A stretch of DNA of 64,000 nt, from positions 62,001 through 126,000 of the forward strand of contig NW_027254672.1 of the NCBI RefSeq assembly GCF_044704955.1. The letters are read 5' to 3'. Shown here piece after piece: positions 33,501 through 62,851 of this stretch (positions are counted from its first letter, which is position 1; the number at the start of each line of letters is the position of its first letter). A model generated the notes under the pieces. That model worked only from the letters and a program-made list of their open reading frames with translations. It searched no databases and was not told the origin of the DNA. The position numbers and the translations under genes were made by a program. The DNA is from Pristiophorus japonicus (lineage: Eukaryota).

Positions 33501-34527
33501 CAACTTTCTGTGATAGAGAATTCCACAGGTTCACCACTCTCTGAGTGAAGAAGTTTCTCCTCATCTCGGTCCTAAATGGCTTACCACTTATCCTTAGACT
33601 GTGACACCTGGTTCTGGACTTCCCCAACATTGGGAACATTCTTCCTGCATCTAACCTGTCTAAATCCGTCAGAATTTTAAACGTTTCGATGAGAACCCCT
33701 CTCATTCTTCTGAACTCCAGTGAATACAAGCCCAGTTGATCCAGTCTTTCTTGAAATGTCAGTCCCGCCAACACGGGAATCAGTCTGGTGAACTTTCGCT
33801 GCACTCCCTCAATAGCAGGAATGTCCTTCCGCAAGTTAGGGACCAAAACTATACACAATACTCCAGGTGTGGCCTCACCAAGGCCCTGTACAACTGTAGT
33901 AACACCTCGTTGTCCCTGTACTTTGAGGATATAACGTGCATGGTGGATAGAGGTATACCGATGGATGTGGTGTATTTAGATTTCCAAATGGCATTCGATA
34001 AGGTGCCACACGAAAGGTTACTGCAGAAGATAAAGGTACGCGGAGTCACAGGAAATGTATTAGCATGGATAGAGATTTGGCTGGCTAACAGAAAGCAGAG
34101 AGTCGGGATAAATGGGTCCTTTTCGGGTTGGAAATCGGTGGTTAGTGGTGTGCCACAGGGATCGGTGCTGGGACCACAACTGTTTACAATATACATAGAT
34201 GACCTAGAAGAGGGGACAGAGTGTAGTGTAACAAAATTTGCAGATGACACAAAGACTAGTGGGAAAGCGGGTTGTGTAGAGAACACAGAGAGGCTGCAAA
34301 GAGATTTAGATAGGTTAAGCGAATGGGCTAAGGTTTGGCAGATGGAATACAATGTCGGAATATGTGAGGTCATCCACCTTGGAATAAAAAACAGTAAAAG
34401 GGAATATTATTTGAATGGGGAGAAATTACAACATGCTGCGGTGCAGAGGGACCTGGGGGTCCTTGTGCATGAAACTCTCTTTGGGTAAACAATTAGTTCA
34501 AGTGCCCCCTGAATACAGGGGTGGGAT

Positions 34528-34628
34528 AAAGCCTCCAGTCTTCCATCCAAGTACTAACAAGGCCTGACTTCGCTTAGCTTTCAAGATCAGATGAGAGCAG
34601 GCATTTTCAGACTAGTGTGGTCGTAGGC
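34528..34628 (-). rRNA. 5S rRNA copy (pseudogene, about 20-nt internal deletion)
   Basis: Reverse complement: GCCTACGACCACACTAGTCTGAAAATGCCTGCTCTCATCTGATCTTGAAAGCTAAGCGAAGTCAGGCCTTGTTAGTACTTGGATGGAAGACTGGAGGCTTT. Box A and box C are recognisable; the segment corresponding to GCCTGGGAATACCGGGTGCT is missing. Confidence 0.9.
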
Positions 34629-34635
34629 CTAAATC

Positions 34636-34727
34636 TGCCTTTGGTGGCACTCGAACTCTCAACTTTTGAATGCTTTACAAACATCCTGATTCGAAGTCCA
34701 ATGCGCTATCCATTGCGCCACGAGAGG
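34636..34727 (-). tRNA. Intron-containing tRNA-Arg copy (TCT-family body, TCG anticodon), probably a pseudogene
   Basis: GTGGCGCAATGGATAGCGCATTGGACTTCGA-[19-nt intron 34672-34690]-ATTCAAAAGTTGAGAGTTCGAGTGCCACCAAAGGCA. Anticodon at 34694-34692; mismatches in the T and acceptor stems. Confidence 0.88.
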
Positions 34728-37700
34728 GATGGAGTACAAAAGCAGGGAGGTCCTTCTGCAACTGTACAGGGTATTGGTGAGGCCGCACCTGGAGTACTGC
34801 GTGCAGTTTTGGTCACCTTACTTAAGGAAGGATATACTAGCTTTGGAGGGGGTACAGAGATGATTCACTAGGCTGATTCCGGAGATGAGGGGGTTACCTG
34901 ATGATGATAGATTGAGTCAACTGGGTCTTTACTCATTGGAGTTCAGAAGGATGAGGGGTGATCTTATGGAAACATTTAAAATAATGAAAGGGATAGACAA
35001 GATAGAGGCAGAGAGGTTGTTTCCACTGGTCGGGGAGACTAGAACTAGGGGGCACAGCCTCAAAATACAGGGGAGCCAATTTAAAACCGAGTTGAGAAGG
35101 AATTTCTTCTCCCAGAGGGTTGTGAATCTGTGGAATTCTCTGCCCAAGGAAGCAATTGAGGCTAGCTCATTGAATGTATTCAAAGCACAGATAGATAGAT
35201 TTTTAGCCAATAAGGGAATTAAGGGTTACGGGGAGCGGGCGGGTAAGTGGAGCTGAGTCCACGGCCAGATCAGCCATGATCTTGTTTAATGGCGGAGCAG
35301 GCTCGAGGGGCTAGATGGCCTACTCCTGTTCCTAATTCTTATGTTCTTATGTACTCAAATCCCCTCGCTATGAAGGCCAACATGCCATTTGCTTTCTTAA
35401 CCGCCTGCTGCACCTGCATGCCACCCTTCAATGACTGATGTACCATGACACCCAGGTCTCGTTGCACCTCCCCTTTTCCGAATCTGTCACCATTCAGATA
35501 ATAGTCTGTCTCTCTGTTTTTACCACCAAAGTGGATAACCTCATATTTCTATACTTTATTCATATAAAAATTTGCACGGTACATTGGAAGGCATTTCTGT
35601 ACATTTGGATGCAGTCAGCAATTCCATACAATACATTTGGATGCTGACGACAGTTCCGTCAATACATTTGGATGCTGGGTCATAATCAGGTGTAAAGCTG
35701 TTGTTGAATTCTAGTGCATCCAGTCATTTTAATCTCAAGCCCAGGGGTTTTTGACCAACACAGTTACATCAAGGTAACTGGACGGGTCAAACTGTGACAT
35801 CACAGGGCAAGCCTGACCCTACCCTGTGCATCACAGTGAGATGAGGCATCACAATAGGTTTGTCACCTGGGGCTACCTGAGACACAAGCAGTTTCAGTGA
35901 AGGAAAGCACTGACTGAGACTAACTGGCTGATATCTCTAGCAGTGAATGTGGCCGGATACAATATCTCACCATTTTAATTTTATGAAGAGAACACGATGA
36001 AAACATCATCAACCAGCAGATTAGAGAGAAGGTTGTGAGCTTTGAAAGGTTGGGATTAACCTATTGATCTTGTATTATCATTTGTGAAAGTCAGAATGAG
36101 CAACATAACGAGTTTAATAGATACAGTAATACTGGTGCACAATAGCTTGTTAGAACAGTACATTTTGTTGTTATTTGATCTTCTTTGGGGTTGTTAATAG
36201 TTAGTCTGGAGCCTGTTGCCTGCTCACAGATGGTTACTGAGTCCCACTCTCAGCTCCCTCACTAACCAGACTCTCCCAGCCCTTGCGTTTGGTGCTCACT
36301 CCATGTTCTGTAAATGTAGACAACTACTTATCATTGATAGACCTCCCGGGGCATTGCTCAGGACAGTCTGCAGGGTGAGCAACAGTCACACATGTAACTG
36401 GGCCCCACTGAGAGAAGGGGGCACGGAGAAGGCAAACAATCCCATCACTGCCCATTGCCCGCACACCCGACTCTCTGGGTCATAACCAAGTGCAAAGCGG
36501 TTATTGTATTCCAGCACATCCAACCTAAGGCTCAAGGCTTTTTGGCCAAACACCGTTGCATCAAAGTGAGGCCCTTTCACTGGACGGGTCAAACTGTGAC
36601 ATCACAGGGCAAGCCTGACCCTACCCTGTGCATCACGTGATCACTGACATCATGATAGGTTTGTAAACAGGGGCAACATGCGGCAGAAGAGGCTGCACAA
36701 GCAGTTTCAGTGAAGGAAAGGGAGCTGTACTGACTGTGACTAACTGGCTGATTTCTCTAGGAGTGAATGTGGCCGGCTAGAAGACCTGGTGAAGGGAGTG
36801 TGAACAATGGAATCATCACTAACCAGCTGACAGTCGGAAGGGTGTTGCTGTGGAAGGTTTGTTTATTCCAGCTAGAACTGGGAGGCATAATCTTAGAATA
36901 AGGGCCGCCCATTTAAAACTGTGATGAGAAGGAATTTCTTCTCTCAGAGGGTTGTAAACCTGTAGAATTCACTGCCTCAGAGTGCTTTGGATGCTGGGTC
37001 ATTGAATGGATTTAAGGCAGAGATAGAGAATTTCTTAACTGATAAGGGATTAAGGGGTTATGGGGAGCGGGCAGGGAAATGGACCTGAGTCCATGATCGG
37101 ATTAGCCATGATCATATTAAATAGTGGAGCAGGCTCGAGGGGCCGAATGGCCTACTCCTGCTCCTATTTCTTATGTTCTTATGTTCTTATGTTCTTATGT
37201 TCTTATGACTGCTGCACCACCATTGATCTGAGCGTCCAGCACTCCAAACCCAAGAAACACAAACGCTGTTTCAGAAGGACATTGGAGTGCTAGAGTCATC
37301 CTCCACCCAGAGATGTGGGCACGGAGAAGGCAAACAAGTTTATCATTGTCCATCGCCCGAGCACCCTTATCTCTGGGACATAACCAAGTGTAAAGCTGTT
37401 ATTGCATTCTAGCGCATCTAGTCCTTGTAATCTAAAGCCCAGGGGATTCTGGCCAAACACAGTTACATCAAGGTGAGGCCCTTTCACTGGACGGGTCAAA
37501 CTGTGACATCACAGGGCAAGCCTGACTCTACCAGGTGCATCATGTGATCACTGACATCACGATAGGTTTGTAAACAGGGGCAACATGAGGCAGAAGAGGC
37601 TGCACAAGCAGTTTCAGTGAAGGAAAGGGAGCTGTACTGACTGTGACTAACTGGCTGATTTCTCTAGGAGTGAATGTGGCCGGCTAGAAGACCTGGTGAA

Positions 37701-40700
37701 GGGAGTGTGAACAATGGAATCATCACTAACCAGCTGACAGTCGGAAGGGTGTTGCTGTGGAAGGTTTGTTTATTCCAGCTAGAACTGGGAGGCATAATCT
37801 TAGAATAAGGGCCGCCCACTTAAAACTGTGATGAGAAGGAATTTCTTCTCTCAGAGGGTTGTAAATCTGTAGAATTCACAGACTCAGAGTGCTTTGGATG
37901 CTGGGACATTGAATGGATTTAAGACAGAGATAGACTGTTTCTTAACTGATAAGGGATTAAGGGGTTATGGGGAGCGGGCAGGGAAATGGACCTGAGTCCA
38001 TGATCGTATTAAATGGCAGAGCAGGCTCGAGGGGCTGAATGGTCTACTCCTGCTCCTATTTCTTATGTTCTTATGTTCTTATGACTGCTGCACCATCATT
38101 GATCTGAGCGTCCAGCACTCCAAACCCAAGAAACACAAAAGCTGTTTCAGAAGGACATTGGAGTGCTAGAGTCATCCTCCACCCAGAGATGTGGGCACGG
38201 AGAAGGCAAACTAGTTTATCATTGTCCATCGCCCGAGCACCCACTTCTCCGGGTCATAACCAAGTGTAAAGTTGTTATTGCATTCTAGCGCATCTAGTCC
38301 TTGTAATCTAAAGCCCAGTGGATTCTGGCCAAACGCAGTTACATCAAGGTGAGGTTCTTTGACTGGATGGGTCAAACTGTGACATCACAGGGCAAGCCTG
38401 ACCCTACCCTGTGCATCACGTGATCACTGACATCACGATAGGTTTGTAAACAGGAGCAACATGAGGCAGAAGAGGCTGCACAAGCAGTTTCAGTGAAGGA
38501 AAGGGAGCTGTACTGACTGTGACTAACTGGCTGATCTCTCTAGGAGTGAATGTGGCCGGCTAGAAGACCTGGTGAAGGGAGTGTGAACAATGGAATCATC
38601 ACTAACCAGCTGACAGTCGGAAGGGTGTTGCTGTAGAAGGTTTGTTTATTCCAGCTAGAACTAGGAGGCATTATCTTAGATTAAGGGGCCGCCCATTTAA
38701 ATCTGAGATGAGGAGGAATTTCTTCTCTCAGAGGGTTGTAAACCTGTGGAATTCACTGCCTCAGAGTGCTTTGGATGCTGGGTCATTGAATGGATTTAAG
38801 GCAGAGATAGAGAATTTCTTAACTGATAAGGGATTAAGGGGTTATGGGGAGCGGGCAGGGAAGTGGACCTGAGTCCATGATCGGATCAGCCATGATCATA
38901 TTAAATAGTGGAGCAGGCTCGAGGGGCCGAATGGCCTACTCCTGCTCCTATTTCTTATGTTCTTATGACTGCTGCACCACCATTGATCTGAGCGTCCAGC
39001 ACTCCAAACCCAAGAAACACAAACGCTGTTTCAGAAGGACATTGGAGTGCTAGAGTCATCCTCCACCCAGAGATGTGGGCACGGAGAAGGCAAACAAGTT
39101 TATCATTGTCCATCGCCCGAGCACCCTCTTCTCTGGGACATAACCAAGTGTAAAGCTGTTATTGCATTCTAGCGCATCTTGTCCTTGTAATCTAAAGCCC
39201 AGGGGATTCTGGCCAAACACAGTTACATCAAGGTGAGGCCCTTTCACTGGACGGGTCAAACTGTGACATCACAGGGCAAGCCTGACTCTACCCGGTGCAT
39301 CACGTGATCACTGACATCACGATAGGTTTGTAAACAGGGGCAACATGAGGCAGAAGAGGTTGCACAAGCAGTTTCAGTGAAGGAAAGGGAGCTGGACTGA
39401 CTGTGACTAACTGGCTGATCTCTCTAGGAGTGAATGTGGCCGGCTAGAAGACCTGGTGAAGGGAGCGTGAACAATGGAATCATCACTAACCAGCTGACAA
39501 TCGGAAGGGTGTTGCTGTAGAAGGTTTGTTTAATCCAGCTTGGATAATTCCCTGTGAAAGTCAGAGTGTGTAACAGTATAACCCACTGCAGTGACCATGC
39601 AGACATCAATGTTCAAACCCTGGGAACTGAAACCAGATCAGTACTCGCTCGTTGTTCTGATCAACTGGGATAATCTGTGGGACAAGGAGTCGATGGGAAA
39701 CTCTTGTCCCAGCTGTTACTGGTGCCCTCTGACCTTGTCAATCCCTGGGTCCTTATCAAGGACCTGCTCCCAGGTCAGCTGGCTCAGGTACTGCCACCAA
39801 TAGCCCTCCGATTGTCAGAGAAGTTCCTTGTCCCAATGATCCTGGTTCACCTGATGGCATTGCCGCCATTCTGGACCATCTCTCGGATTCTGAAGAAGGT
39901 GTAAATTCCCCAACTCCACAACCTTTAATACTCAGGTGGCAGCAGAATCTGTGGCCAGTGACATTACATGGAAAGAAACACGTTGATAGTTTTGCCCCCA
40001 GAATCTGCATTAAACATTTACAGCTTCAATGGTTTACTGTACAATGCTCGTTCTAAAGTACCTGTCGTTGTCTTGTTGTGATCCAGTGATTTAAAAACAA
40101 ATCTGTCATTTGTTCTTCTGCTAGAGGTACACGGTTGGCGTCAGGATGAGAGAGAGAAAATGGGCGGTTTCATCAAAGTACCTCCAGACTAAAGTTGTGA
40201 GTAACAAAACCACAAAGACAAGTGGATCAGACACACAAGAGAGAGCACATCGTGACAGAAATCAAATCAATGCCAGCAGAGAAACCACAGGAGCGGGCGG
40301 TGTAACTGAAATTATCCCGATGCCCTCCCTCTGTGTCCCATCCATTTCTCAGTACCAACTCCACACCTTTCAATTTGTGTTTCATTTAACGGCCAGTATC
40401 CCCCCTTCCCCAGAGACCCATCTAGTCCTCATGTCCCTGCACCGGCAACAAGCACCAACCCTGCTCCAACTCCAGGCTCAGTTTGGCAATGCTTGGGGTG
40501 AACTGCACTGGCACTGGGTAAAGCCCAGTCTGTGCCATCATCTCCAACCAGTGCCATCCAGGGGTCCACCTCGGGACTTAACAGGAAAGTCTCAAGCATG
40601 GACGCTCTGGTTGTTGCCCCGAGACATCCCAGAATTCAGAGGGAGCCCTCCCCTGGCACCAGCTGGCTCGGAGGAGTCCGTGACTGCTGGTACCAGGATC

Positions 40701-42979: not shown

Positions 42980-45900
42980 CGTGGAAGCAAGTCATCCTCA
43001 TTTCGAGGGACTGCCTATGATGATTGATTGAGAAGTATAGAAGGGAGAAGTGAATCGAGGGTTATCCTGATAGTTAGATGAGTGGAGACAGGGGGAGGCT
43101 CGAGTGGAGTATAAACGCCAGCATGGACTGGTTTAGCCGAATGGCCTGTTTCTGTGCTGTATTCCTATGTAATCATTCACCTCCATTAGCCTTTACAAGG
43201 CTTTATCCGGACCGCAATGTCCTTTGCACCATGATCGCCTATCATTCCAGATTAGGACCTGGAATGCAGGGAGGTAACTTTCGATACCCGTTCCAGTTCC
43301 ACCTCCCCAAGCAGTGATCAGCAGCCTCGGGTGTGAATGGTACAATAGGACATTGTAGACTTTCAGACTCGGTGAGGGGCAAGTCAGCATGTCTACACTC
43401 AGACTGTATGACAGTAGTCCGGTATTTCTACAGTCTGGGACCCACTCCTGGGTCCCTCTGTCAAGTTGACGTGTTGCTTCCCATTGGTGCTTGAATGACG
43501 GGGTGACACTCTTGCTGCCACATTTGTCCTAGGTGGAGGTCATCATCATAGGCAGTCCCTCGGAATAGAGGAAGACTTGCTTCCACTCCTCAAGTGAGTT
43601 ATTTGGTGGCTGAATAGTCCAATACGAGAGCCACAGACTCTGTCACAGGTGGGACAGATAGTCGTTGAGGGTAAGGGAGGGTGGGACTGGTTTGCCGCAT
43701 GCTCTTTCCGCTGTCTGTGCTTGATTTCCGCACGCTCTCGGCGTTGAGACTCGAAGTGTTCAACACCCTCCCGATGCACTTTCTCCACTTAGGACGGACT
43801 TTGGCCAGGGACTCCGAGGTGTCAGTGATGATGTCGCACTTTATCAGTGAGGCTATGAGGGTGTCCTTGCAATGGTTCCGCTGCCCACCTTTGGCTCATT
43901 TGCCGTGAAGGAGCTCAGCATCGATCACTTGCCTTGGGAGTCTCGTGTCTGACATGCGAACTTTGTGGCCTGCCCAGCCAAGCTGACCGAGTGTGGTCAG
44001 TGCTTCAATGCTGGGGATGTTAGCCTGGATGAGGACGCTAATGTTGGTGTGCCTGTCCTCCGAGGGGATTTGTAGGATCTTGCGGAGACATCGTTGGTGA
44101 TATATCTCCAGCGAATTGAGGTGTCTTCTGTACATCGTCCATGCCCCTAAGCCATACAGGAGGTTGGGTATTACTACAGCCCTGTAGACCTTGAGCTTGG
44201 TGCTAGATTTGAGGGCCTGGTCTTTGAACAGTTTTTTTCTCAGGCAGCCGAGGGTTGCACTGGCTCACTGGAGGGAGTGTTGTATCTCTGCATCACTGTC
44301 TGCTTTTGTTGACAAGAGGCTCTCGAGGTATGGGAAATGATGCACGTTGTTGAGGGCCGTGGATCTTGATGACTGGGGGGCAGTGCTGTGCGGTGAGGAC
44401 AGGCTGATGGAGGAACTTTATCTTACGGATGTTTAGCGTAAGGCCTATGCTTTCGTATGCCTCAGTAAATACGTCGACTCTATTCTGGAGTTCAGCCTCA
44501 GAATGTGCGCAGACACAGGAGGCCAGGCTCCACCTCACAGTCAACAAGCTCCCCGCTGGAGTGGAACTAAACTACAGACCAGTGGGAAGCTGTTTAACCC
44601 ACGCTGCCTCCAGGCCAGGACCAAGATCACCCCAACCTCTGTCGTTGAGCTACAGTACGCGGATGCCGCCTGCATCTGCACACATTCTGAGGCTGAACTT
44701 CAGGTTACAGTCGATGTATTTACTGAGGCATACGAAAGCATGGGCCCTACGCTAAATATCCATAAGACAAAGGTCCTCCACCAGCCTGTCCTTGCCACAA
44801 AGCACTGCCCCGAGTCATCAAGATCCACGGCGCGGCCCTCAACAACGTGGACCATGTCCCTTACCTCAGGAACCTCTTATCAACAAAAGCAGACAGTGAT
44901 GCGGAGATTCAACACCGCCTCCAGTGCGCCAGTGCAGCCTTCGGCCACCTGAGGAAAAGAGTGTTTGAAGACCAGGCCCTCAAATCTATCAGTAAGCTCA
45001 TGGTCTACAGGGCTGTAGTAATACCCACCCTCCTGTATGGCTTAGGGGCATGGACGATGTACAGAAGAGACCTCAAGTCGCTGGAGATATATCATCAATG
45101 ATGTCTCCGCAAGATCCTTCATATCCTGTGGGAGGACAGACGCACCAGCATCAGTGTCCTTGCCTAGGTTAACATCCCCAGCTTGGGCAGGTCACTTAGT
45201 TCACATACCAGACACGATGCTCCCAAAGCAAGCGCTCTATGCGGCGCACCTTCATGGCAACGAGCCAAAGGTGGGCAGTGGAAACGTTACAAGGACACCC
45301 TCAAAGCCTCCCTGGTGAAGTGTGACATCACCACCGACACCTGGGAGACCCTGTCCGAAGACCGTCCTAGGTGGAGAAAGTGCATTCAGGAGGGTGTTGA
45401 GTTCTTCGAATCTCAACGCTGCGAGTGTGAAGAGGTCAGGTGCAGGCAGCGGAAGGGGCGTGTGGTAAATCAGTGCCACCCCACCCTTTCCACGACGAAT
45501 GTCTGTCCCACCTGTGACAGGGTCTGTGGTTCTCATGTTGGACTGTTCAGCCACTAAAGAACTCACTTTAGTAGTGGAAGCAAGTCTTCCTCGATTCCGA
45601 GAGACTGCCTATGATGATTGATTGAGATAAGCATTTCAGGGAGAAGTGAACAGAGAGTTATCCTGATCGTTAAATGAGGGGAGACAGGGGGGAGGCTCGA
45701 GTGGACCATAAACGCTAGCATGGACTGGTTGAGCCGAATGGCCTGTTTCTGTGCTGTAATCGATGTAATCATTCACCTCCATAAGACTTTACAATGCTTT
45801 ATCCAGACCGTAATGTCCTTTGTACCATCTAGTCCATCATTCCCGATTAGGACCTGGAATGCAGGGCAGTAACCTTCGAAACCCGTTCCAGCTCCACGTC

Positions 45901-48900
45901 CCCAAACAGTGATCAGCAGCCTCGGGATGTGAATGGTCCAATAGGACAGTGTAGACTTTCAGTCTCAGTGCCGGGCAAGTCAGCATGTCTGCGGACAGAC
46001 TGTATGACAGTAGTCCGGTATTTCTACAGTCTGGGACCCCCTCCTGGGTCCCTTTGTCAAGTTGACGTGTTATTTCCCATTGCTGCTTGAACGACGGGGT
46101 GACATTCTTGCTGCCATATTTGGCCAGGGTGGACATCATCATCATAGGCAGTCCCTCGGAATAGAGGAAGACGTTCGTGCACTCCTGAAATGAGTACTTT
46201 GCTGGCTGAGTAGTCCAATAAGAGAGCCACTGCCTCTGTCACAGGTGGGACAGATAGTCATTGAGGGGAAGGCTGGGTGGGACTGGTTTGCCACATGCTC
46301 TTTCCGCTGTCTGCGCTTGATTTCCGCACGCTCTTGGCGTTGAGACTCGAGGTGCTCATCACCCTCCCGATGCACTTTCTTCACTTAGGGCGGTCTTTGG
46401 CCAGGGACTCTCGGTGTCAGTGATGGTGTCGCACTCTATCAGGGAGGCTTTGAGGGTGTCATTGCACCGTTTCCGCTGCTCACCTTTGGCTCATTTGTCG
46501 TGAAGGAGCTCTGCATAGTTCACTTGCTTCAGGAATCTCGTGTCTGACATGCGAACTAGGTGGCCTGTCCAGCGAAGCTGACCGAGTGTGGTCAGTGCTT
46601 CAGTGCTGGGAATGATAGCCTGGACGTAGTCGCTAATGTTGGTGCGCCTGTCCTCCGAGGGGATTTGTAGGATCTTACAAAGACATCGTTGGTGCTATAT
46701 CTCCAGCGAATTGAGGTGTCTTCTGTACATCGTCCATGCCCCTGAGCCATACAGGAGGGTATTACTACAGCCCTATAGAGCATGAGCTTGGTGGTAGATA
46801 AAGGTCCTCCACCAGCCTGTCCTTGCCGCAAAGCACTGTCCCCCAGTCATCAAGTTCCATGGCGTGGCCCCCGACAACCTGGACCATTTCCCTTACCTCA
46901 GGAGCCTCTTATCAACAAAAGCAGATGTTGATGCGGAGATTCAACACCGCCCCCAGTGCGCCAGTGCAGCCTTCGGCCACCTGAGGAAAAGAGTGTTCCA
47001 AGTCCAGGCCTTGAAATCTACCACTGAGCTCATGGTCTACATGGCTGTAGTAATACCCGCCCTCCTGTATGGCTCAGGGGCATGGACGATGTACAGAAAA
47101 TACCTCAAAGTCACTGGAGATATATCATCAATGATGTCTCCGCAAGATCCTTCATATCCCGTGGGAGGACAGATGCACCAACATCAGTGTCCTTGCCTAG
47201 GCTAACATCCCCAGCTTGGGCAGGTCACTTAGTTCGCATGCCAGACACGATGCACCCAAAGCAAGCGCTCTGTGCAGCGCACCTTCATGGCAAACGAGCC
47301 AAAGGTGGGCAGTGGAGACGTTACAAGGACACCCTCAAAGCCTCCCTGGTGAAGTGAGACATCATCACCGACACCTGGGAGACCCTGGCTGAAGACCGCC
47401 TTAGGTGGCGAAAGTGCATTCGGAAGGGTGTTGAGTTCTTCGAATCTCATCGCTGCGAGTGTGAAGAGGTCAGGTGCAGGCAGCGGAAGGGGCGTGTGGT
47501 AAATCAGTGCCACCCCACCCTTTCCACGACGAATGTCTGTCCCACCTGTGACAGGGTCTGTGGTTCTCGTGTTGGACTGTTCAGCCACTAAAGAACTCAC
47601 TTTAGTAGTGGAAGCAAGTCTTCCTCGATTCCGAGAGACTGCCTCTGATGATTGATTGGTCACTTTTCCCTGAAATGCTTATCTCAGAGAGTTATCCTGA
47701 TAGTTAAATGAGGGGAGACAGCGGGGAGGCTCGAGTGGACCATAAACGCTAGCATGGACTGGTTGAGCCGAATGGCCTGTTTCTGTGCTGTAATCGATGT
47801 AATCATTCACCTCCATAAGACTTTACAATGCTTTATCCAGACCGTAATGTCCTTTGTACCATCTAGTCCATCATTCCCGATTAGGACCTGGAATGCAGGG
47901 CAGTAACCTTCGAAACCCGTTCCAGCTCCACGTCCCCAAACAGTGATCAGCAGCCTCAGGATGTGAATGGTCCAATAGGACAGTGTAGACTTTCAGTCTC
48001 AGTGCCGGGCAAGTCAGCATGTCTGCAGACAGACTGTATGACAATAGTCTGGTATTTCTACAGTCTGGGACTACCTTCTGGGTCCCTCTGTCAAGTTGAC
48101 GTCTTACTTCCCATTGATGCTTGAACAACGGGGTGACACTCTTGCTGCCACATTTGGCCAGGGTGGACATCATCATCATAGGCAGTCCCTCGGAATAAAG
48201 GAAGACTTGCTTCCACTCCTGAAGTGAGTACTTTGGTGGCTGAGTAGTCCAATAAGAGAGCCACTGCCTCTGTCACAGGTGGGACAGATAGTCGTTGAGG
48301 GGAAGGCTGGGTGGGACTGGTTTGCCACATGCTCTTTCCGCTGTCTGCGCTTGATTTCCGCACGCTCTTGGTGTTGAGACTCGAGGTGCTCATCACCCTC
48401 CCGATGCACTTTCTTCACTTAGGGCGATCTTTGGCCAGGGACTCTCGGTGTCAGTGATGATGTCGCACTCTATCAGGGAGGCTTTGAGGGTGTCATTGCA
48501 CCGTTTCCGCTGCTCACCTTTGGCTCATTTGTCGTGAAGGAGCTCCGCATAGTTCACTTGCTGAAGGAATCTCGTGTCTGACATGCGAACTATGTGGCCT
48601 GCCCAGCGAAGCTGACCGAGTGTGGTCAGTGCTTCAGTGCTGGGAATGATAGCCTGGACGTGGTCGCTAATGTTGGTGCGCCTGTCCTCCGAGGGGATTA
48701 GTAGGATCTTGCGAAGACATCGTTGGTGCTATATTTCCAGCGAATTGAAGTGCCTTCTGTACATCGTCCATGCCCCTGAGCCATACAGGAGGGTATTACT
48801 ACAGCCCTATAGAGCATGAGCTTGGTGGTAGATAAAGGTCCTCCACCAGCCTGTCCTTGCCGCAAAGCACTGTCCCCCAGTCATCAAGTTCCATGGCGTG

Positions 48901-51900
48901 GCCCCCGACAACCTGGACCATTTCCCTTACCTCAGGAGCCTCTTATCAACAAAAGCAGATGTTGATGCGGAGATTCAACACCGCCTCCAGTGCGCCAGTG
49001 TAGCCTGCGGCCACCTGAGGAAAAGAGTGTTCGAAGTCCAGGCCCTGAAATCTACCACTAAGCTCATGGTCTACAGTGCTGTATTAATACCCGCCCTCCT
49101 GTATGGGTCAGGGGCATGGACGATGTACAGAAGACACCTCAAGTCGCTGGAGATATATCATCAATGATGTCTCCGCAAGATCCTTCATATCCCGTGGGAG
49201 GACAGACGCACCAACATCAGTGTCCTTGCCCAGGCCAACATCCCCAGCTTGGGCAGGTCACTTAGTTTGCATGCCAGACACGATGCTCCCAAAGCAAGCG
49301 CTCTATGCGGCGCACCTTCATGGCAACGAGCCAAATGTGGGCAGTGGAAACGTTACAAGGACACCCTCAAAGCCTCCCTGGTGAGTGTGACATCATCACC
49401 GACACCTGGGAGACCCTGTCCGAAGACCGCCTTAGGTGGAGAAAGTGCATTCGGGTGGGTGTTGAGTTCTTTGAATCTCAACGCTGCGAGTGTGAAGAGG
49501 TCAGGTGCAGGCAGCGGAAGGGGCGTGTGGTAAATCAGTACCACCCCACCCTTTCCACGACGAATGTCTGTCCCACCTGTGACAGGGTCTGTGGTTCTCG
49601 TGTTGGACTGTTCAGCCACTAAAGAACTCACTTTAGTAGTGGAAGCAAGTCTTCCTCGATTCCGAGAGACTGCCTATGATGATTGATTGAGATAAGCATT
49701 TCAGGGAGAAGTAAATAGAGGGTTATCCTGATAGTTAGATGAGGGGAGACAGCGGTGAGGCTCGAGTGGAGCATAAACGCTAGCATGGACTGGTTGAGCC
49801 GAATGGCCTGTTTCTGTGCTGTAATCGATGTAATCATTCACCTCCATAAGACTTTACAATGCTTTATCCAGACCGTAATGTCCTTTGTACCATCTAGTCC
49901 ATCATTCCCGATTAGGACCTGGAATGCAGGGCAGTAACCTTCGAAACCTGTTCCAGCTCCACGTCCCCAAACAGTGATCAGCAGCCTCGGGATGTGAATG
50001 GTCCAATAGGACAGTGTACACTTTCAGTCTCAGTGCCGGGCAAGTCAGCATGTCTGCAGACAGACTGTATGACAGTGGTCCGGTATTTCTACAGTCTGGG
50101 ACCCCCTCCTGGGTCCCTCTGTCAAGTTGACGTGTTACTTCCCATTGGTGCTTGAACGACGGGGTGACACTCTTGCTGCCACATTTGGCCGGTGTGGACA
50201 TCATCATCATAGGCAGTCCCTCAGAATAGAGGAAGACTTGCTTCCACTCCTGAAATGAGTACTTTGGTGGCTGAGTAGTCCAATAAGAGAGCCACTGCCT
50301 CTGTCACAGGTGGGACAGATAGTCGTTGAGGGGAAGGCTGGGTGGGACTGGTTTGCCACATGCTCTTTCCGCTGTCTGCGCTTGATTTCCGCACGCTCTT
50401 GGCGTTGAGACTCGAGGTGCTCATCACCCTCCAGATGCACTTTCTTCACTTAGGGCGGTCTTTGGCCAGGGACTCTCGGTGTCAGTGATGGTGTCGCACT
50501 CTATCAGGGAGGCTTTGAGGGTGTCATTGCACCGTTTCCGCTGCTCACCTTTGGCTCATTTGTCGTGAAGGAGCTCTGCATAGTTCACTTGCTTCAGGAA
50601 TCTCGTGTCTGACATGCGAACTATGTGGCCTGCCCAGCGAAGCTGACCGAGTGTGGTCGGTGCTTCAGTGCTGGGAATGATAGCCTGGACGTGGACGCTA
50701 ATGTTGGTGCGCCTGTCCTCCGAGGGGATTAGTAGGATCTTACAAAGACATCGTTGGTGCTATATCTCCAGCGAATTGAGGTGTCTTCTGTACATCGTCC
50801 ATGCCCCTGAGCCATACAGGAGGGTATTACTACAGCCCTATAGAGCATGAGCTTGGTGGTAGAAAAAGGTCCTCCACCAGCCTGTCCTTGCCGCAAAGCA
50901 CTGTCCCCCAGTCATCAAGTTCCATGGCGTGGCCCCTGACAACCTGGACCATTTCCCTTACCTCAGCAGCCTCTTATCAACAAAAGCAGATGTTGATGCG
51001 GAGATTCAACACCGCCTCCAGTGCGCCAGTGCAGCCTTCGGCCACCTGAGGAAAAGAGTGTTCGAAGTCCAGGCCCTGAAATCTACCACTAAGCTCATGG
51101 TCTACATGGCTGTAGTAATACCCGCCCTCCTGTATGGCTCCGGGGCATGGACGATGTAGAGAAGACACCTCAAGTCACTGGAGATATATCATCAATGATG
51201 TCTCCGCAAGATTCTTCATATCCCGTGGGAGGACAGACGCACCAACATCAGTGTCCTTGCCTAGGCTAACATCCCCAGCTTGGGCAGGTCACTTAGTTTG
51301 CATGCCAGACACGATGCTCCCAAAGCAAGCGCTCTATGCGGCACACCTTCATGGCAAACGAGCCAAAGGTGGGCAGTGGAGACGTTACAAGGACACCCTC
51401 AAAGCCTCCCTGGTGAGTGTGACATCACCACCGACACCTGGGAGACCCTGGCCGAAGACCGCCTTAGATGGAGAAAGTGCATTCGGAAGGGTGTTGACTT
51501 CTTCGAATCTCAACGCTGCGAGTGTGAAGAGGTCAGGTGCAGGCAGCGGAAGGAACGTGTGGTAAATCAGTGCCACCCCACCCTTTCCACGACGAATGTC
51601 TGTCCCACCTGTGACAGGGTCTGTGGTTCTCGTGTTGGACTGTTCAGCCACTAAAGAACTCACTTTAATAGTGGAAGCAAGTCTTCCTCGATTCCGAGAG
51701 ACTGACTATGATGATTGATTGAGATAAGCATTTCAGGGAGAAGTGAACAGAGAGTTATCCTGATAGTTAAATGAGGGGAGACAGCGGGGAGGCTCGAGTG
51801 GACCATAAACGCTAGCATGGACTGGTTGAGCCGAATGGCCTGTTTCTGTGCTGTAATCGATGTAATCATTCACCTCCATAAGACTTTACAATGCTTTATC

Positions 51901-53775
51901 CAGACCGTAATGTCCTTTGTACCATCTAGTCCATCATTCCCGATTAGGACCTGGAATGCAGGGCAGTAACCTTCGAAACCCGTTCCAGCTCCACGTCCCC
52001 AAACAGTGATCAGCAGCCTCAGGATGTGAATGGTCCAATAGGACAGTGTACACTTTCAGTCTCAGTGCCGGGCAAGTCAGCATGTCTACAGACAGACTGT
52101 ATGACAGTGGTCCGGTATTTCTACAGTCTGGGACCCTCTCCTGGGTCCCTCTGTCAAGTTGACGTGTTACTTCCCATTGGTGCTTGAACAACGGGGTGAC
52201 ACTCTTGCTGCCACATTTGGCCAGGGTGGGCATCATCATCATAGGCAGTCCCTCGGAATAGAGGAAGACTTGCTTCCACTCCTGAAATGAGTACTTTGGT
52301 GGCTGAGTAGTCCAATAAGAGAGCCACTGCCTCTGTGACAGGTGGGACAGATAGTCGTTGAGGGGAAGGCTGGGTGGGACTGGTTTGCCACATGCTCTGT
52401 CTGCGCTTGATTTCCGCACGCTCTTGGCGTTGAGACTCGAGGTGCTCATCACCCTCCCGATGCACTTTCTTCACTTAGGGCGGTCTTTGGCCAGGGACTC
52501 TCGGTGTCAGTGATGGTGTCGCACTCTATCAGGGAGGCTTTGAGGGTGTCATTGCACCGTTTCCGCTGCTCACCTTTGGCTCATTTGTCGTGAAGGAGCT
52601 CTGCATAGTTCACTTGCTTCAGGAATCTCGTGTCTGACATGCGAACTATGTGGCCTGTCCAGCGAAGCTGACCGAGTGTGGTCGGTGCTTCAGTGCTGGG
52701 AATGATAGCCTGGACATGGACACTAATGTTGGTGCGCCTGTCCTCCGAGGGGATTAGTAGGATCTTGCGAAGACATCGTTGGTGCTATATTTCCAGCGAA
52801 TTGAAGTGCCTTCTGTACATCGTCCATGCCCCTGAGCTATACAGGAGGGTATTACTACAGCCCTATAGAGCATGAGCTTGGTGGTAGATAAAGGTCCTCC
52901 ACCAGCCTGTCCTTGCCGCAAAGCACTGTCCCCCAGTCATCAAGTTCCATGGCGTGGCCCCCGACAACCTGGACCATTTCCCTTACCTCAGGAGCCTCTT
53001 ATCAACAAAAGCAGATGTTGATGCGGAGATTCAACACCGCCTCCAGTGCGCCAGTGCAGCCTTCGGCCACCTGAGGAAAAGAGTGTTCGAAGTCCAGGCC
53101 CTGAAATCTACCACTAAGCTCATGGTCTACATGGCTGTAGTAATACCCACCCTCCTGTATGGGTCAGGGGCATGGACGATGTACAGAAGACACCTCAAGT
53201 CGCTGGAGATATATCACCAACGATGTCTCCGCAAGATCCTTCATATCCCGTGGGAGGACAGACACACCAACATCAGTGTCCTTGCCCAGGCCAACATCCC
53301 CAGCATTGAAGCACTGACCACACTCGATCAGCTTCGCTGGGCAGGCCACTTAGTTTGCATGGCAGACACGAGACCCCCAAAGCAAGCGCTCTATGCGGCG
53401 CTCCTTCATGGTAAACGAGCCAAAGGTGGGCAGCGGAAACGTTACAAAGACACCCTCAAAGCCTCCCTGGTGAAGTGTGACATCACCACTGACACCTGGG
53501 AGATCCTGGTTGAAGGCCACCTTAGGTGGAGAAAGTGCATTCGGGAGGGTGTTGAGCTCTTCGAATCTCAACGCTGCGAGTGTGAAGAGGTCAGGTGCAG
53601 GCAGCGGAAGGGGCGTGTGGTAAATCAGTGCCACCCCACCCTTTCCACGACGAATGTCTGTCCCACCTGTGACAGGGTCTGTGGCTCTCGTGTTGGACTG
53701 TTCAGCCACTAAAGGACTTACTTTAGTAGTGGAAGCAAGTCTTCCTCGATTCCGAGGGACTACCTGTGATGATGA
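42980..53775. repeat. Tandem array of five units (about 2.6 kb, then 4 x about 2.03 kb), each with an inverted pair of RTE fragments, a LINE tail remnant and a unique segment
   Basis: Marker gtaatcattcacctcca at about 43169, 45766, 47800, 49830 and 51862. RTE motifs DHFPYL, LLYGS..WT, LRWAGH and CPTCDR.C.S..GL.SH on both strands. Confidence 0.95.
52954..53712 (+). pseudogene. RTE LINE ORF C-terminal fragment (252 aa open)
   Basis: RTE RT C-terminus and terminal C2H2-like motif, followed by a (tga)n tail. Confidence 0.9.
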
Positions 53776-53899
53776 TTATGGGGCCTTGGAAGTTTGGACT
53801 GTAGTTGGTCTTGACTGCGATGAAGAATCCTCGCATATCGTGACTATCGGCCAGCTGCTGTATCTCCTGTGCTTTCTCCATCCACCACCTTTTTGTTAG

Positions 53900-55170
53900 G
53901 TCCCGGGTTTTTTGTTGGACCTCAGCCTTGAGCCGTCTGTAATGTTACTTTGCTGCTCCCATGTTGGGTTGTTGTTTGAGGCTCAGAAATGCTCTGCTCT
54001 TGTGATCTATTAGTTCTTGGATCACCTGATCATTCTCATCAAACCAGTCCTGGTGTTTTCTAGTTGAGTGACCAAGTGGTCACAGGCACTGGTTATGGAG
54101 GCCTGGAGGGCAGACCAAGCACTGTGGGCATTCAGTATCTCAGGGTTATCAAGGCATGCCAGGTTAGCTGTGAGGTTCTGGCTGTATAGGTCCATCTTTG
54201 CTGGGTCTTTAAGTGCCCCTGCATTGACTTTTTTGTGGCACTGCTTCTGCTGTCCCCTTCGCTTTGGGGCTTTTAAATGTCGATGATGGATCGGATTAGG
54301 CGCTGGTCCGTCCAGCAGTCGTCAGCTCCTGTCATGGCGCGGGTGATGTGCACATACTTGCAATCCCTGGCTCGGATGATGACAGTCGAGAAGGTGCCAG
54401 TGTTTGGAGCGAGGGTGTTGCCACGATACCTTGTATTTGTCCCTCTGGCGGAACAGGATGTTGGTGATGAGAGGTTCATGTTCTGGACATTTTGTCAGGA
54501 GTAGGGTACCGCTGGCTTTCTCTATCCCCTCGCTGCCAATCCCAGAGGGCTGTGTCTTTGCTGACCCTGACGTGAAGTCACCTCGGAGGATCAGTTTGTC
54601 GCCCGCGGGGACACGGGACAGGGATATTTCGAGGTTGGAATAAAAACCCTCTTTGGTCTCATCCGTTGCATCGAGTGTAGAGGCCTACGCAATGATGATC
54701 GTGGTGCATCGGTTCCGGGATAGGGTGAGTCGAAGAGTCATGAGGCGTTCGTTAACCCCACAGGGGGAGTCTTTGAGGTGGCCGACCAGCTCACTTTTGA
54801 TGGCGAAACCGACTCTGTGAAGGCGGCGTTCTTCCTCTGGTTTTCCGTTCCAGAAAAAGGTGTAACCTCCACCTTATTCCTTGAGCTGGGCTTCCCCTGC
54901 CCACCGGGTCTCGCTTAGGATGGCTATGTCGATGTCAAAGCGCCTAAGTTCCCGGGCGACTATGGCGGTGAGGCGTTCTGGCCTGTCGCTGTTGGAGTTC
55001 TCCATGAGGGTCCTGACGTTTCAGGTCCCGAACTTCATGTTAACAAAGTGAAAGATGCCTGTGTGTGAGTTCTTTTAATGTGGGGTGGTCGTTGCACACG
55101 GGCTTAGCTGAGCAAGGTCTTGGTCCATTGGCAAAGGGGTCCAAGACGACTGGAGACCAGGCACTGCTGT
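53900..55170 (-). mobile_element. RTE LINE 5' part (UTR plus AP endonuclease), internally deleted
   Basis: ATG at 55038: MKFGT*NVRTL...DIDIAILSETR...GYTFFWNG...VGFAI...NERLMTLRL...GDF. Confidence 0.88.
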
Positions 55171-59115: not shown

Positions 59116-59862
59116 CACCTTTGTGCACAGATCATAGCAAGGAACAAAGGGGAAGGGTTGAGTTCTTCGATGGGGAGTTTTTGCAGACTGTGGATTGTCC
59201 TTGGGCTGAGCTACTGACTGGGTGAACTCTCTGAGCCACACACCAGGCAGGGCCCTGAGATAATCCTCAGTCTGCACATACAAACCTACAAAAGGACCAT
59301 CAGTAGATAAAGACTCTCAGACAGCATAACCTCGCCTGCTCCTGTCCCACCTCCAGTAATGCTATCTCTTGGAACAAACAAAGGAATGTGGCCAATTCAG
59401 GAAAAAAACCTCTGGGCAATTGCTCTACAACTCCCTGAGGTTCCAGGGAGAGCATTGCTGCTCCAGGAACATCACAATCTAAAGTGGCCTCTCACTCCCC
59501 GTAACTGCCAATGTCCGCTCAGAAAGTTTTCAACTTCCCCTGTAAAATAAATGAGTGTAGTGCCCCAACACTCACTCACCCTCTGTTACTCACCACATGT
59601 TGCACTCTGATGACTCTGTGACAAGCCATGGACTCATACAGCACGGAAGGAGGCCATTCAGCCCATTATGTCTATGCTGGACCTTTGCACGAGCCACACA
59701 AAAGTCCCATTCCCCTGCTCCCTCCCCACAGTCCCACAAATGGCTCCTAACCACCCGCTGCCCTCCCAGCACACATCTAATTCTCTCCTTGTTCCCTTCC
59801 CACAGCCCTGTAAGTGGCTCCCACACCCCCTGCCCTCTCAGCTGGAAGTGGTTTCCCTTCGG

Positions 59863-60807
59863 TGTTTTCGAAGCATCCCCACTTTACAATAGTTCTAACG
59901 CTGGGAATTATTACTGTACCGAACAGATGGATGAGTCAGGGATGGGTACCTTGGTCCGAGTACTGGCAATGCTTTTATTAAAGTTAAAACACACACTTGC
60001 ACCCAGTACAAACACACCCTGGTAGTGTAATAAAAACAAACGCAGTACAACACACAGTCTGGCCTGTCTAAGCCTACTGCGAAGTACCCACGTCTAAAAC
60101 ACCTCCCCTGAAAATCCCTAAGATATTGGTTGGGAGAACGCACGATACCCCCTCACACCGTGACTGTGATTTTAAAAGATGTGTGTGCAGAAATAATGCT
60201 CACCGATTCGCTGGCTTACTCACTGCTTCATCCGATGAAAAGGTGTCTCTTCTGGTTTCTTCTCTCCATCCCACATGGAGGGTTGGATTCTTGTCGAGGT
60301 GAAACAGCGATGCAAGAGAGAGAGAGAGTGACCACACGGCCTCTTTTATATCCCAGTACTGTCTGTCCTTTCAGGCTGAATAAAGTTTGTTTCGAGGCAA
60401 GACTTCCTGTGGGTGTGTCTTCTGCTTTTAGCTCAATAAAGTTTCTCCCTTTGTTTCGAGGTTTCCTGTTTTTCCAGTGATGGGTTTTGCTTCCGAGCAG
60501 TCTGGGGCTTAATGGCTTTCTATTGTTCTGGTCTCTCATCCAGGTAATGGCTCCATCACTGATCAGTTCACTTGACCAGTTCACATTGCTGAACAAAACA
60601 CAGTCCATTTGCTCATCATCTGCAATAAATTGCCTTAGCGTGGTCATTGTCTTCCCAGAACCCCTGCCCATCATTCTAAGTCCATCATAGCCGCACCTGG
60701 GCCCCTTCCAGCTTTTTCTGCGGTGAGAAAAACATTAAAATGCAAATCCTTGGGGATTAAAACGCAATGTCCAGATCCTTGGGGATTCGTTGCTTACAGT
60801 CCTTACA
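59863..60807 (-). mobile_element. Putative 3' LTR (about 945 bp) of the env-bearing element
   Basis: Minus strand: purine tract ATAGGGGAGAC then TGTAAG at 60807; TATAAAA at about 60350; AATAAA at about 59975; ends AAAACA at 59863. Confidence 0.6.
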
Positions 60808-60981
60808 GTCTCCCCTATGATATTTCAAGAGTCTTCGAGAACATATCAACGTCCGCTGGTGAGCAAGCCTCGTGGTTCCCAACCAATCCTATCCCTTTTT
60901 ACTTTTAAAACACCCCGAATATACATCCCTGAAATACAACCGTGCATCGCACTGTTACCATGGAGATACAGAACGTTACAT

Positions 60982-62596
60982 TCAAGGTTTGTTAACTGCA
61001 GCCTCCCATCGACTCCGGAGCATCTGACTTCTCTTTTTACAAGAAATACACAACAGGTATATCACAATCAAACACTGTACAATGACGCGAGCATGTGAGC
61101 ATATCTGGATCCACGGAGGAACCTCCACACTTATACCAAGGTCCCACCAGGACGGGGCATTTATCCCTTTAATTCTTTCCCCTGTGTCCCGGTTCTTCTG
61201 TTCCAGCGTGAAATAATGTTTTTGGGGTTAGCTCGATGGCCTTTAATAACGTTGTTAGGTGTCCCGGCTCAAAAGGAATCTGATACCTGAACTGGGTAAT
61301 GTATTGTTGCAGGTTCGGGATCGTGTTGTTTACCGTAATGTGTACCGTGGATGGTTCTGGGATCGGAATAATACCTTCCTGTGCCACTTGAACTTCGGCG
61401 TGGGGTTTGAAGCAGAAAGTGCTGTCATTGCCGGACACCAAGTGTCCCGGTGCATTCGATACCGGTCCACACTCGTGGTTACACAGTATGTCCCGTCGCC
61501 CACATGTGCTACCTGAGGTGGGACGTGGCTCTAGGGCCTCACCTCCATGGGGCAATTGATGAGCTCGTGCCTCTTGGATTCAAACCCACACTCTGGCCGA
61601 TCGAATGCGTTCAAATGCTGGGGACACAATATGACGTGTGCACCCCTGCTCTGGCACCCCTTGTGGTCAGTGCCAGTCATGGCGTGCTCCCACTTTATAA
61701 CAAATGGTGGGACAGCATGATACCGCATGTGCACCCCATCCCGTACGCCCCCAATGTTCTCCACCCTGTATACCGGCGCTGGTTGTGATGTCCCACCCAT
61801 TACCGGCGTACACAACACTATCCCCATGATTGAGTGGTTGGACAGACCACAATCCACTGAGACTGATAGGCTTCAGAGGCTAGACACAGCTGACACGGGC
61901 TCATCGAATTACTGTACGGGCTGAGTGCTGCGAGGTGCTGGTTGCTGATCCATGGCGGGATGTGACCTTACTGGAGGTCCTCTAAATTACTGCACCCCTC
62001 GCTCAGCAACCAGGCACCGTACAACATGCACACTTCGTTTTGTGCTGCCTGCACCGAGGTATTCCTGTCCTCCAGTATTAATACATTTACAGTTTTTGCA
62101 TGTGTCTCCAGCTCTGCGATAGCCTTTAAATGGACAGTCATTGCCTGGTCCTCCTCTAACTCTGACCCTCCCACCGCGTTCCCTTCCCCAGGATTTTCCA
62201 CAGCTGGTCCTTGAAACCACTGATCTGCAGCTGCATGGTGTCCATGCTGTTGACCAGAGATGTACCCGCGCTAAACGCAGTAGTGACCTCATTGAGCACC
62301 CCTCGCCTCTGCCTCCCCGGACTAACGTTATCCCTCACTCCCATAGTGTACAATCTATCCCGACTCACATCCCCGTAACTGAGTTCAAAGAACTGGCGGA
62401 ACATTTCTCCAATGAGCACCTCATACAGCTGCTCAGTTTCTTTTAGACACCACTCAGGCAGATGTACCGCGGTTAGGTTTAACATGACCGATGCCACTGT
62501 GTAATGCAGCCCCTGGAATAAAACCTTTCTGGTCAGGACTAAAACTAAACCATTCCCTGGGCCTGGTGTGGTGGTGGGACACCTAACTTCTGTCAT
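60982..62596 (-). pseudogene. env: F-type class I fusion (env-like) glycoprotein remnant
   Basis: RQRR furin site followed by GVLNEVTTAFSAGTSLVNS and a heptad-like segment; Cys-rich middle (CPQH, ECGF, YCVTT, FCFKP); SWWD then a hydrophobic TM VIVQCLIVIYLLCISC and KKR; stop at 60982-60984. Several frameshifts and stops. Confidence 0.8.
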
Positions 62597-62624
62597 TACC
62601 GCGTGAAAGTTCGTGATCCGTTAG

Positions 62625-62851
62625 TCGTCGCCAATTTGTTATGTTCAGAATAAATTCACAGGACTATATCGCAAGTGCAAACTGTTGTGACCTTGGTCTC
62701 TTTATTCAGACTCCAGAGTGAGGAAGCAGCATGGTGAGTCACCTTTTATACCCGCTTGCCCCAGGTGCACAGGTGATCCTTAGGTCTCCCACAGGTGTGC
62801 CCCCTAGTGGCAAGTCTTACATTTTGACAAGGTTTACATCCATACATAATA
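62625..62851 (-). mobile_element. Gypsy-type 5' LTR (62637-62851) with PBS TGGCGACGA (62633-62625)
   Basis: About 215 bp with TATAAAA and AATAAA, ending AACA. Same PBS and layout as the Gypsy element at 4093. Confidence 0.8.

Follow-up and report, generated by a model that had tools for sequence, protein, structure and literature searches.

The 64,000-nucleotide stretch of Pristiophorus japonicus DNA analysed here (the window) very probably holds what is left of an endogenous retrovirus (ERV) of cartilaginous fish, namely a dead, 5'-truncated env and a 3' LTR from a virus that is likely SnRV-related (clade Huo, class III) and whose Env, predicted to be a class Ib, F-like protein, likely carried an Ig-like head. 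The Env appears to work like an F-type fusogen, the RT test speaks against a lokiretrovirus, and an SnRV-like class III ERV is the likely source. The window locus itself is a dead fragment and ordinary junk. The family to which it belongs puts an F-type Env on an SnRV-like polymerase, and this combination is of real evolutionary interest.

The truncated env in the window and its history

The window env lies on the minus strand (62596-60982) and is split into six open pieces: its frame changes at least four times (near 62186, 61865, 61430, and 61227), and in-frame stops lie at 61970 and 61533. The features that the initial annotation had noticed there (RQRR, a fusion-peptide-like segment, helices, a Cys-rich region, WW, TM, a basic tail, and no CX6CC) are all present on this strand, and CX6CC is absent from all six frames of the window env. 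The 20-mer that follows RQRR is Gly/Ala/Ser-rich and mildly hydrophobic (mean KD 0.64), long helices and a Cys-rich beta region are predicted, and the TM segment (KD 2.0 over a 19-mer) is followed by a KKR basic tail and a stop near 60982. Pfam scans of five of the window env pieces return zero matches. The remnant aligns to a 777-aa natural open frame of a sister subfamily with a tblastn E-value of 2e-148, and all 40 of the genome matches that were scored span the greater part of it at 94-100% identity; it is therefore a real env and not a chance arrangement. Of the parts of a provirus, the window retains env, the polypurine tract, and the 3' LTR only (Table 1). The initial annotation had placed the LTR at 59863-60807; its nature is borne out, and its far end lies some 20 nucleotides further, at about 59843. 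In L039, a longer copy of the same subfamily, the 5' LTR is followed by a tRNA-Arg-like PBS and shares about 70% identity with the window LTR.

Table 1. Features of the env remnant and its surroundings in the window
Feature	Position	Strand	Remark
ERV env, 3' two-thirds, pseudogene	60982..62593	-	About residues 236-777 of the family protein
Order of parts in the window env	60982..62593	-	F2-like segment, furin site, fusion peptide, HRA, Cys-rich beta domains, HRB, WW, TM, basic tail
RQRR furin-type cleavage motif	62303..62314	-	Residues 327-330 of the full-length sister Env
Predicted fusion peptide (the 20 codons that follow RQRR)	62243..62302	-	Assigned from its position
WWD membrane-proximal motif and TM, then a short basic tail	61045..61150	-	
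Polypurine-tract-like stretch directly before the 3' LTR	60808..60820	-	
ERV 3' LTR	59843..60807	-	About 965 bp, with TG...CA ends, a TATA-like motif, and AATAAA
Unrelated Gypsy-type LTR retrotransposon, 5' end, joined to env in frame	62594..62850	-	False start

The apparent start of the window env is misleading. The 255 bases 5' of it belong to a dispersed Gypsy-type element with 3259 candidates in the genome, which contributes an LTR (about 62850-62636), a PBS, a short leader, and a gag ATG at 62596. The label "Gypsy" follows our own reading of a gag-like frame and a short LTR and is best regarded as provisional. The gag ATG is joined to env with a two-base overlap at about residue 235 of the family protein, and the fusion arose by deletion or rearrangement. 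Because the window ATG is a gag ATG at a deletion junction, the short "F2-like" N-terminus is an artefact; the junction happens to fall near the point at which the F-like part of Env begins. The furin motif, which the initial annotation had put about 100 aa from the start and which is residue 95 when counted from the ATG at 62596, thus has its true position at about residue 327. About 235 N-terminal residues are missing from the window copy, including the signal peptide and an Ig-like domain recognised by weak matches, and with the signal peptide and head gone and a frame shift after 137 codons, the window copy cannot make a full Env.

Twelve other copies are near-identical to the window over env and both flanks, and these shared flanks identify them as segmental duplicates of the window block. 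Another contig holds seventeen further copies, of about 95% identity and greater length than the window copy: env homology begins at family residue 8-22 in 16 of the 17, the flank past the LTR is common to 15, and in those read further upstream, env follows an integrase. All 30 examined copies of the window subfamily share one break (at about codon 371) and contain further stops, so they are likely to descend from one insertion that was already dead. A single ERV insertion would have gained env frameshifts and then been duplicated along with its flank; a Gypsy-type element would later have been joined to env, deleting the signal peptide and the Ig head, and the block would have been duplicated again at 98-99.9% identity.

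Clusters of dead window-subfamily copies (L014-L030) occupy 13.78-14.45 Mb and 86.39-86.60 Mb of contig C3 of the genome (G000), where a spacing of about 35-100 kb and a common flank indicate large tandem segmental duplications. The window contains repeats of other kinds as well: a tandem array of about 2.03-kb units at 43300-54900 (five copies, 94-100% identical, made up of LINE fragments that appear RTE-like from our reading of their frames) and two further arrays, whose units measure about 876 bp (at 30500-39700) and 10 bp (from about 27050).

The full-length Env of the sister subfamily and its predicted fold

A sister subfamily, 68% identical in DNA to that of the window over env, provides the full-length protein. 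The natural open frame encodes 777 aa from Met, with the TM at 734-752, and the window pieces are 57-71% identical to it (52% for the C-terminal piece). It has a signal-like start, an additional stretch of about 215 residues, and a Pro/Thr linker that leads to the F2-like segment and the R-x-x-R site, which reads RQRR or RQKR in the family. After this site come a hydrophobic segment and helices, then the Cys-rich beta region, and finally WW, the TM, and the basic tail. The sister copies have the layout of a Retroviridae provirus (LTR-PBS-gag-pro-pol-env-PPT-LTR, with TG...CA ends, a short target duplication, and a tRNA primer), the gene order before env is gag, PR, RT, tether, RNase H, and IN, and LTR length in the family is 965-1310 bp. 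The LTR pairs of dispersed sister copies are 97.5-99.85% identical (six of six pairs), and 4-bp target duplications flank four of the five copies with both flanks visible. By hand count, 26 of the 107 scored sister matches are stop-free and lie within open frames of at least 790 codons, which reflects the youth of these dispersed proviruses and not co-option. So young and numerous a subfamily suggests a lineage that may have infected the germ line of this shark recently.

The PBS occurs in three variants among the copies L039, L040, and L089-L099, each complementary to a different host tRNA-Arg gene (two TCG, one CCG), a pattern that copying of the primer in the course of reverse transcription would produce. 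tRNA calling on four loci with the PBS pattern yielded two tRNA-Arg(TCG) genes, one tRNA without assignment, and nothing at the fourth; ARAGORN found zero tRNA genes over six proviral loci. The gag frame ends with UGA followed by CUAG in all three sister copies L089, L091, and L093, and the protease frame continues in frame after this UGA in both copies for which it is listed. UGA-CUAG is a readthrough context familiar from alphaviruses. In the available text of a review of readthrough, SnRV is listed with UAG, and SSSV and two fish/frog ERVs are listed with UGA in hexamers that differ from this one (PMC13517186).

One sister provirus lies just past the window end, on the plus strand at G000:C4060:126500-135800 (L040, L045, L046), with gag, pol, and env remnants; a Gypsy-type element interrupts it after env, and it has been duplicated together with the window block (L041-L044, L047-L054).

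From about residue 240 onward, Env is predicted to adopt a class Ib F fold. The class Ib fusogens, namely paramyxo- and pneumovirus F, foamy Env, and coronavirus S2, have a core beta sheet and a helical bundle to which both cleavage products contribute. The protein folded was the sister Env and not the window copy: its 479-aa ectodomain was modelled with AF2 from a 28-row alignment and no templates (pLDDT 63, pTM 0.47). One window piece was misaligned in alignments A2 and A3 and was omitted from A4, and junk or partial rows were omitted from A7. In a Foldseek search of the PDB with 133 matches at E<=0.001, all 34 rows listed are paramyxovirus or pneumovirus F proteins (best E 4.7e-10, TM 0.23-0.36), and the alignments span both sides of the furin site. 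The top matches in BFVD are F-type glycoproteins of lispi-, filo-, paramyxo-, and baculoviruses, and the retroviral matches there include the Envs of WEHV1 (1.1e-8), WDSV (3.6e-6), and feline foamy virus (4e-5). VIA ranks NDV F first, at a Z-score only just above the tool's "common" level (8.6, rmsd 16.5, 285 residues aligned). The second-ranked match is foamy Env 8rm0, at Z 7.5 with 208 residues aligned at an rmsd of 4.1; generic helical matches score 7.2 or below. The low TM-scores (0.23-0.37) and high rmsd arise because the model mixes conformations. When the 28-row sequence profile was compared with the PDB, the two best matches were again foamy Env, with marginal E-values (0.014 and 0.019) and aligned cysteines.

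The model thus supports the earlier suggestion of an F-like env in place of a gamma-type SU/TM env. Gamma-type TM proteins, named in the initial annotation as a structural match that would speak against an F-like protein, are found nowhere among the listed structural matches, and CX6CC or an ISD is found in none of 44 env homologues, nor in the full Env. The likeness to F proteins is one of predicted structure: PF00523 had zero matches in single-sequence scans of 27 proteins, about 23 of which were frames of env or its homologues, and phmmer with a 483-aa sister frame found nothing significant in the PDB. By analogy with F and foamy Env, the protein would form a trimer cleaved by furin, in which both halves together build the fusion machine; upon triggering, HRA would extend, the fusion peptide would insert, and HRB would zip back to form a six-helix bundle. 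The Ig-like head would serve as a built-in receptor-binding module, N-terminal as in the coronavirus spike.

When 1.84 billion representatives were searched with a profile, 35 matched Env. Ten of these representatives were looked up, nine of which have a named host, among them the sharks Mustelus, Chiloscyllium, Heterodontus, Rhincodon, Scyliorhinus, and Pristiophorus and the frogs Pelodytes and Xenopus; a skate homologue was found in a separate search. Env homologues thus occur in two frogs and in no fewer than seven genera of cartilaginous fish, the distant ones at 17-30% identity; the closest with a named host are from sharks and a skate, in agreement with a cartilaginous fish as host of the window ERV. 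Distant homologues of near full length (P0103, P0107, P0111/P0120) include those from Pelodytes and Xenopus tropicalis (LOC116408820), and the N-terminus of P0107 has a weak V-set match (E 0.045). Two sawshark gene models (P0003, P0091) fuse env pieces to Niban-1-like and cadherin-like proteins; they are probably gene-prediction artefacts and possibly cases of exonisation.

The N-terminal head is likely to be an Ig domain. An Ig-like pattern at about residues 88-185, with the B-strand Cys, the C-strand Trp, and the D-x-G-x-Y-x-C F strand, is conserved in the shark and skate homologues and, in broken form, in the subfamily of the window. Matches of the head to Pfam Ig_3 (E 0.0012-0.017) fall short of the cut-off, and those to PDB profiles, CRTAM and CD8 among them, are weak (E 0.1-0.9). 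A low-confidence model of the head is all-beta (pLDDT 42), and its best Foldseek match has an E-value of 0.02, with none at E<=0.001; a cohesin comes first, and most rows are antibody V domains. A distant bamboo-shark homologue carries the UniRef name "Ig-like domain-containing protein". For a receptor-binding role of the Ig-like head, the chances appear evenly balanced.

The polymerase and the origin of the family

The polymerase analysed is that of the sister subfamily; where RT remnants are best preserved in the subfamily of the window, their identity to the sister RT is 72-88%. The sister Pol comprises RT, two RNase-H-like domains (a PF17917/PF17919 tether, then PF00075), and IN. Its best matches among solved RTs are MLV-type (132 bits), followed by foamy (112) and Ty3 (93), and the closest named Pols, labelled NYNRIN-like, are from coelacanth and frogs (44-52% identity). 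A quick RT tree of 76 rows, from which three of 78 matches had been dropped as too short and in which named SnRV, loki, and foamy rows were not included, groups the family with coelacanth, frog, and two class-I-like Pols (the last two on long branches), apart from Gypsy (SH-aLRT 96). A scan of IMG/VR with the RT for named retroviral references gave four pattern matches, none of which was confirmed. The SnRV assignment comes from a by-eye count against four rows of the RT alignment in the loki paper: over one 53-aa stretch, the family RT shares 37 identities with SnRV, 27 with WDSV, 25 with Loki-Lch, and 23 with SFV. The Gag has a coiled-coil N-terminus, one zinc knuckle, and in-frame read-through into pol, the features reported for SnRV Gag in the available part of PMC2717909. 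With MLV-type RT matches, a tether followed by RNase H, and a tRNA-Arg PBS, the element is a retrovirus proper, and the "env-capturing LTR lineage" that the initial annotation had also considered does not describe it.

Related viruses have been described in such hosts. As far as the available texts go, an SnRV-related lineage is known in elephant shark (CmiERV lineage I; PMC4422223), SnRV-like ERVs are reported in coelacanth and frogs (PMC4977317), clade Huo has the widest host range reported, and some SnRV-related ERVs carry a gamma-type Env (bioRxiv 10.1101/2021.11.23.469661).

The initial annotation had leaned towards a loki-like lineage, and a lokiretrovirus remnant would be the first in a cartilaginous fish. 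Such a virus would share with the family the dual RNase H, the Gag coiled coil, and an F-like Env that has R-x-x-R, a fusion peptide, a coiled coil, and a TM. The F-like part of the family Env opens with GPGNGLVL, which by eye resembles the loki Env start GPPTGIVL in the accessible loki supplement. In addition, the closest Pols carry the NYNRIN label, and loki IN is reported, in the text at hand, to lie near CGIN1, presumably the same gene as NYNRIN. The RT nevertheless makes this reading very unlikely: the family motif is PQG, whereas PFG stands in 24 of the 24 loki rows of the loki supplement, the YVDD context also differs, and the identity over the 53-aa stretch is higher to SnRV than to Loki-Lch. 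Neither of two loki-type Env motifs occurs in any of the 44 env homologues, no PF00523 match is seen, loki Env has its furin site about 110-120 aa from the start as against 327 in the family, and the loki survey, in the text available, scored none of six chondrichthyan genomes as positive (PMC7947760). Still less probable is a Gypsy- or errantivirus-like element with a captured F env, for which 62596-62850 would be its own 5' end. Although the window and the 12 near-identical copies all have the LTR, PBS, and ATG joined in frame to env, and errantiviruses are reported to carry F-type env (available text of PMC13524379), those copies are segmental duplicates, the two LTRs differ, and the fused frame lacks a signal peptide and shifts after 137 codons. 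Furthermore, the frame runs into gag-like sequence in eight of eight other copies of the Gypsy 5' end examined, none of which matches env, and a retroviral integrase precedes the longer env copies. It is equally hard to credit a co-opted, syncytin-like host gene. The initial annotation had asked for intact, possibly co-opted copies, and open env frames do exist, in the young, dispersed sister subfamily; these frames and the occurrence of the window block in 13 or more near-identical copies might be taken as signs of co-option. However, the window copy is dead, the break near codon 371 and further stops run through all 30 window-subfamily copies, and the LTR pairs and target duplications of the sister copies mark their open frames as those of young proviruses.

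A closer contender, though falling somewhat short of even chances, is that the family is a recombinant in which an SnRV-like gag-pol acquired an F-type env, with a loki, foamy, or mononegaviral virus as the donor. This agrees with an SnRV-related ERV as to what the window contains and differs only on the origin of env; the family would then be uninformative on the ancestral retroviral envelope. Env swaps between retroviral classes are described as common in the available portions of two sources (bioRxiv 10.1101/2021.11.23.469661; PMC3758190), other SnRV-related ERVs carry a gamma-type Env, and the top BFVD matches are lispi-, filo-, and paramyxovirus glycoproteins, not retroviral Envs. On the other side, foamy Env provides both the best sequence-profile match and, among F-type folds, the match of lowest rmsd. 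As homologues, the distant ones at 17-30% identity, reach across seven or more genera of cartilaginous fish and two frogs, any capture would have been very old, and capture from a paramyxovirus is not required, since F-like Env is also reported in foamy viruses (PMC11468914, available text).

F-like retroviral Env has been published for lokiretroviruses (PMC7947760), foamy viruses (PMC11468914), and invertebrate errantiviruses (PMC13524379), as described in the accessible parts of these papers. No published SnRV-like ERV with an F-type Env or Ig head was found in a literature search with incomplete coverage of subscription journals and Repbase, and the available texts of PMC12193657, PMC13709493, and PMC12583693 hold nothing on F-type Env in SnRV-like ERVs. 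A tentative and rather unlikely broader reading is that the SnRV-like retroviruses of sharks, skates, and frogs form a further class Ib Env lineage with a captured Ig head, the F type being ancestral together with foamy, loki, and epsilon viruses and the gamma/beta SU/TM envelopes being later replacements. If SnRV-like and epsilon viruses are also class Ib, the nature of the first retroviral envelope becomes testable by Pol and Env trees, and the N-terminal Ig-like head, if true, would represent a further way of adding a receptor module to an F scaffold, beside those of coronaviruses and foamy viruses.

Comparison with known viral systems

SnRV and clade Huo resemble the family in RT motifs, in a Gag with a coiled coil and one zinc knuckle, in in-frame readthrough, and in an aquatic host; the readthrough codon is UAG in SnRV and UGA in the family. 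The likeness to SnRV and CmiERV-I, as far as the available texts go, is one of RT, Gag, and readthrough (PMC4422223, PMC6001957). Foamy Env (8rm0, 8rm1) shares with the family Env an F-like core in a retrovirus and gives its best PDB sequence-profile match and lowest-rmsd F-type fold match. However, according to the accessible text of PMC11468914, the receptor-binding domain of foamy Env sits between the subunits, whereas the extra module of the family is N-terminal and Ig-like; foamy Gag is reported to have no zinc knuckle (PMC2717909, in part), and the family Gag has one.

The F proteins of paramyxo- and pneumoviruses (PF00523; 8v5k, 3rki, 3maw) have the same predicted fold and the same order of parts, from the F2-like strand and helix to the TM. 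In contrast, the family Env is only 8-15% identical to them, has no PF00523 match, bears an N-terminal extension of about 215 aa, and is encoded by an LTR retrovirus. Loki Env is likewise F-like, with a signal peptide, an RXKR site, a fusion peptide, a coiled coil, and a TM, in a virus with dual RNase H and an optional smc gene whose RT clade is sister to all other retroviruses, as described in the available text of PMC7947760; dual RNase H is a feature of all retroviruses, the family and loki included. The same text shows loki Env to match PF00523 and to have no N-terminal extension; the family Env bears such an extension and had no PF00523 match in single-sequence scans, and the RT signatures differ.

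The predicted structures of the epsilonretrovirus Envs (WDSV, WEHV1) match the family model, although these proteins are much longer (1159-1317 aa) and the epsilon Pol is class I. Epsilon Env is described as a distinct, uncharacterised type in the accessible parts of PMC3758190 and PMC9967133; the WEHV1 and WDSV matches (BFVD Q9WHI8, A4GTG3), being matches between predicted models, hint that it may also be a class Ib fusogen. In errantiviruses and other env-bearing Ty3/Gypsy elements, env is tied to a Gypsy-type Pol, whereas the Pol upstream of env in this family is retroviral.
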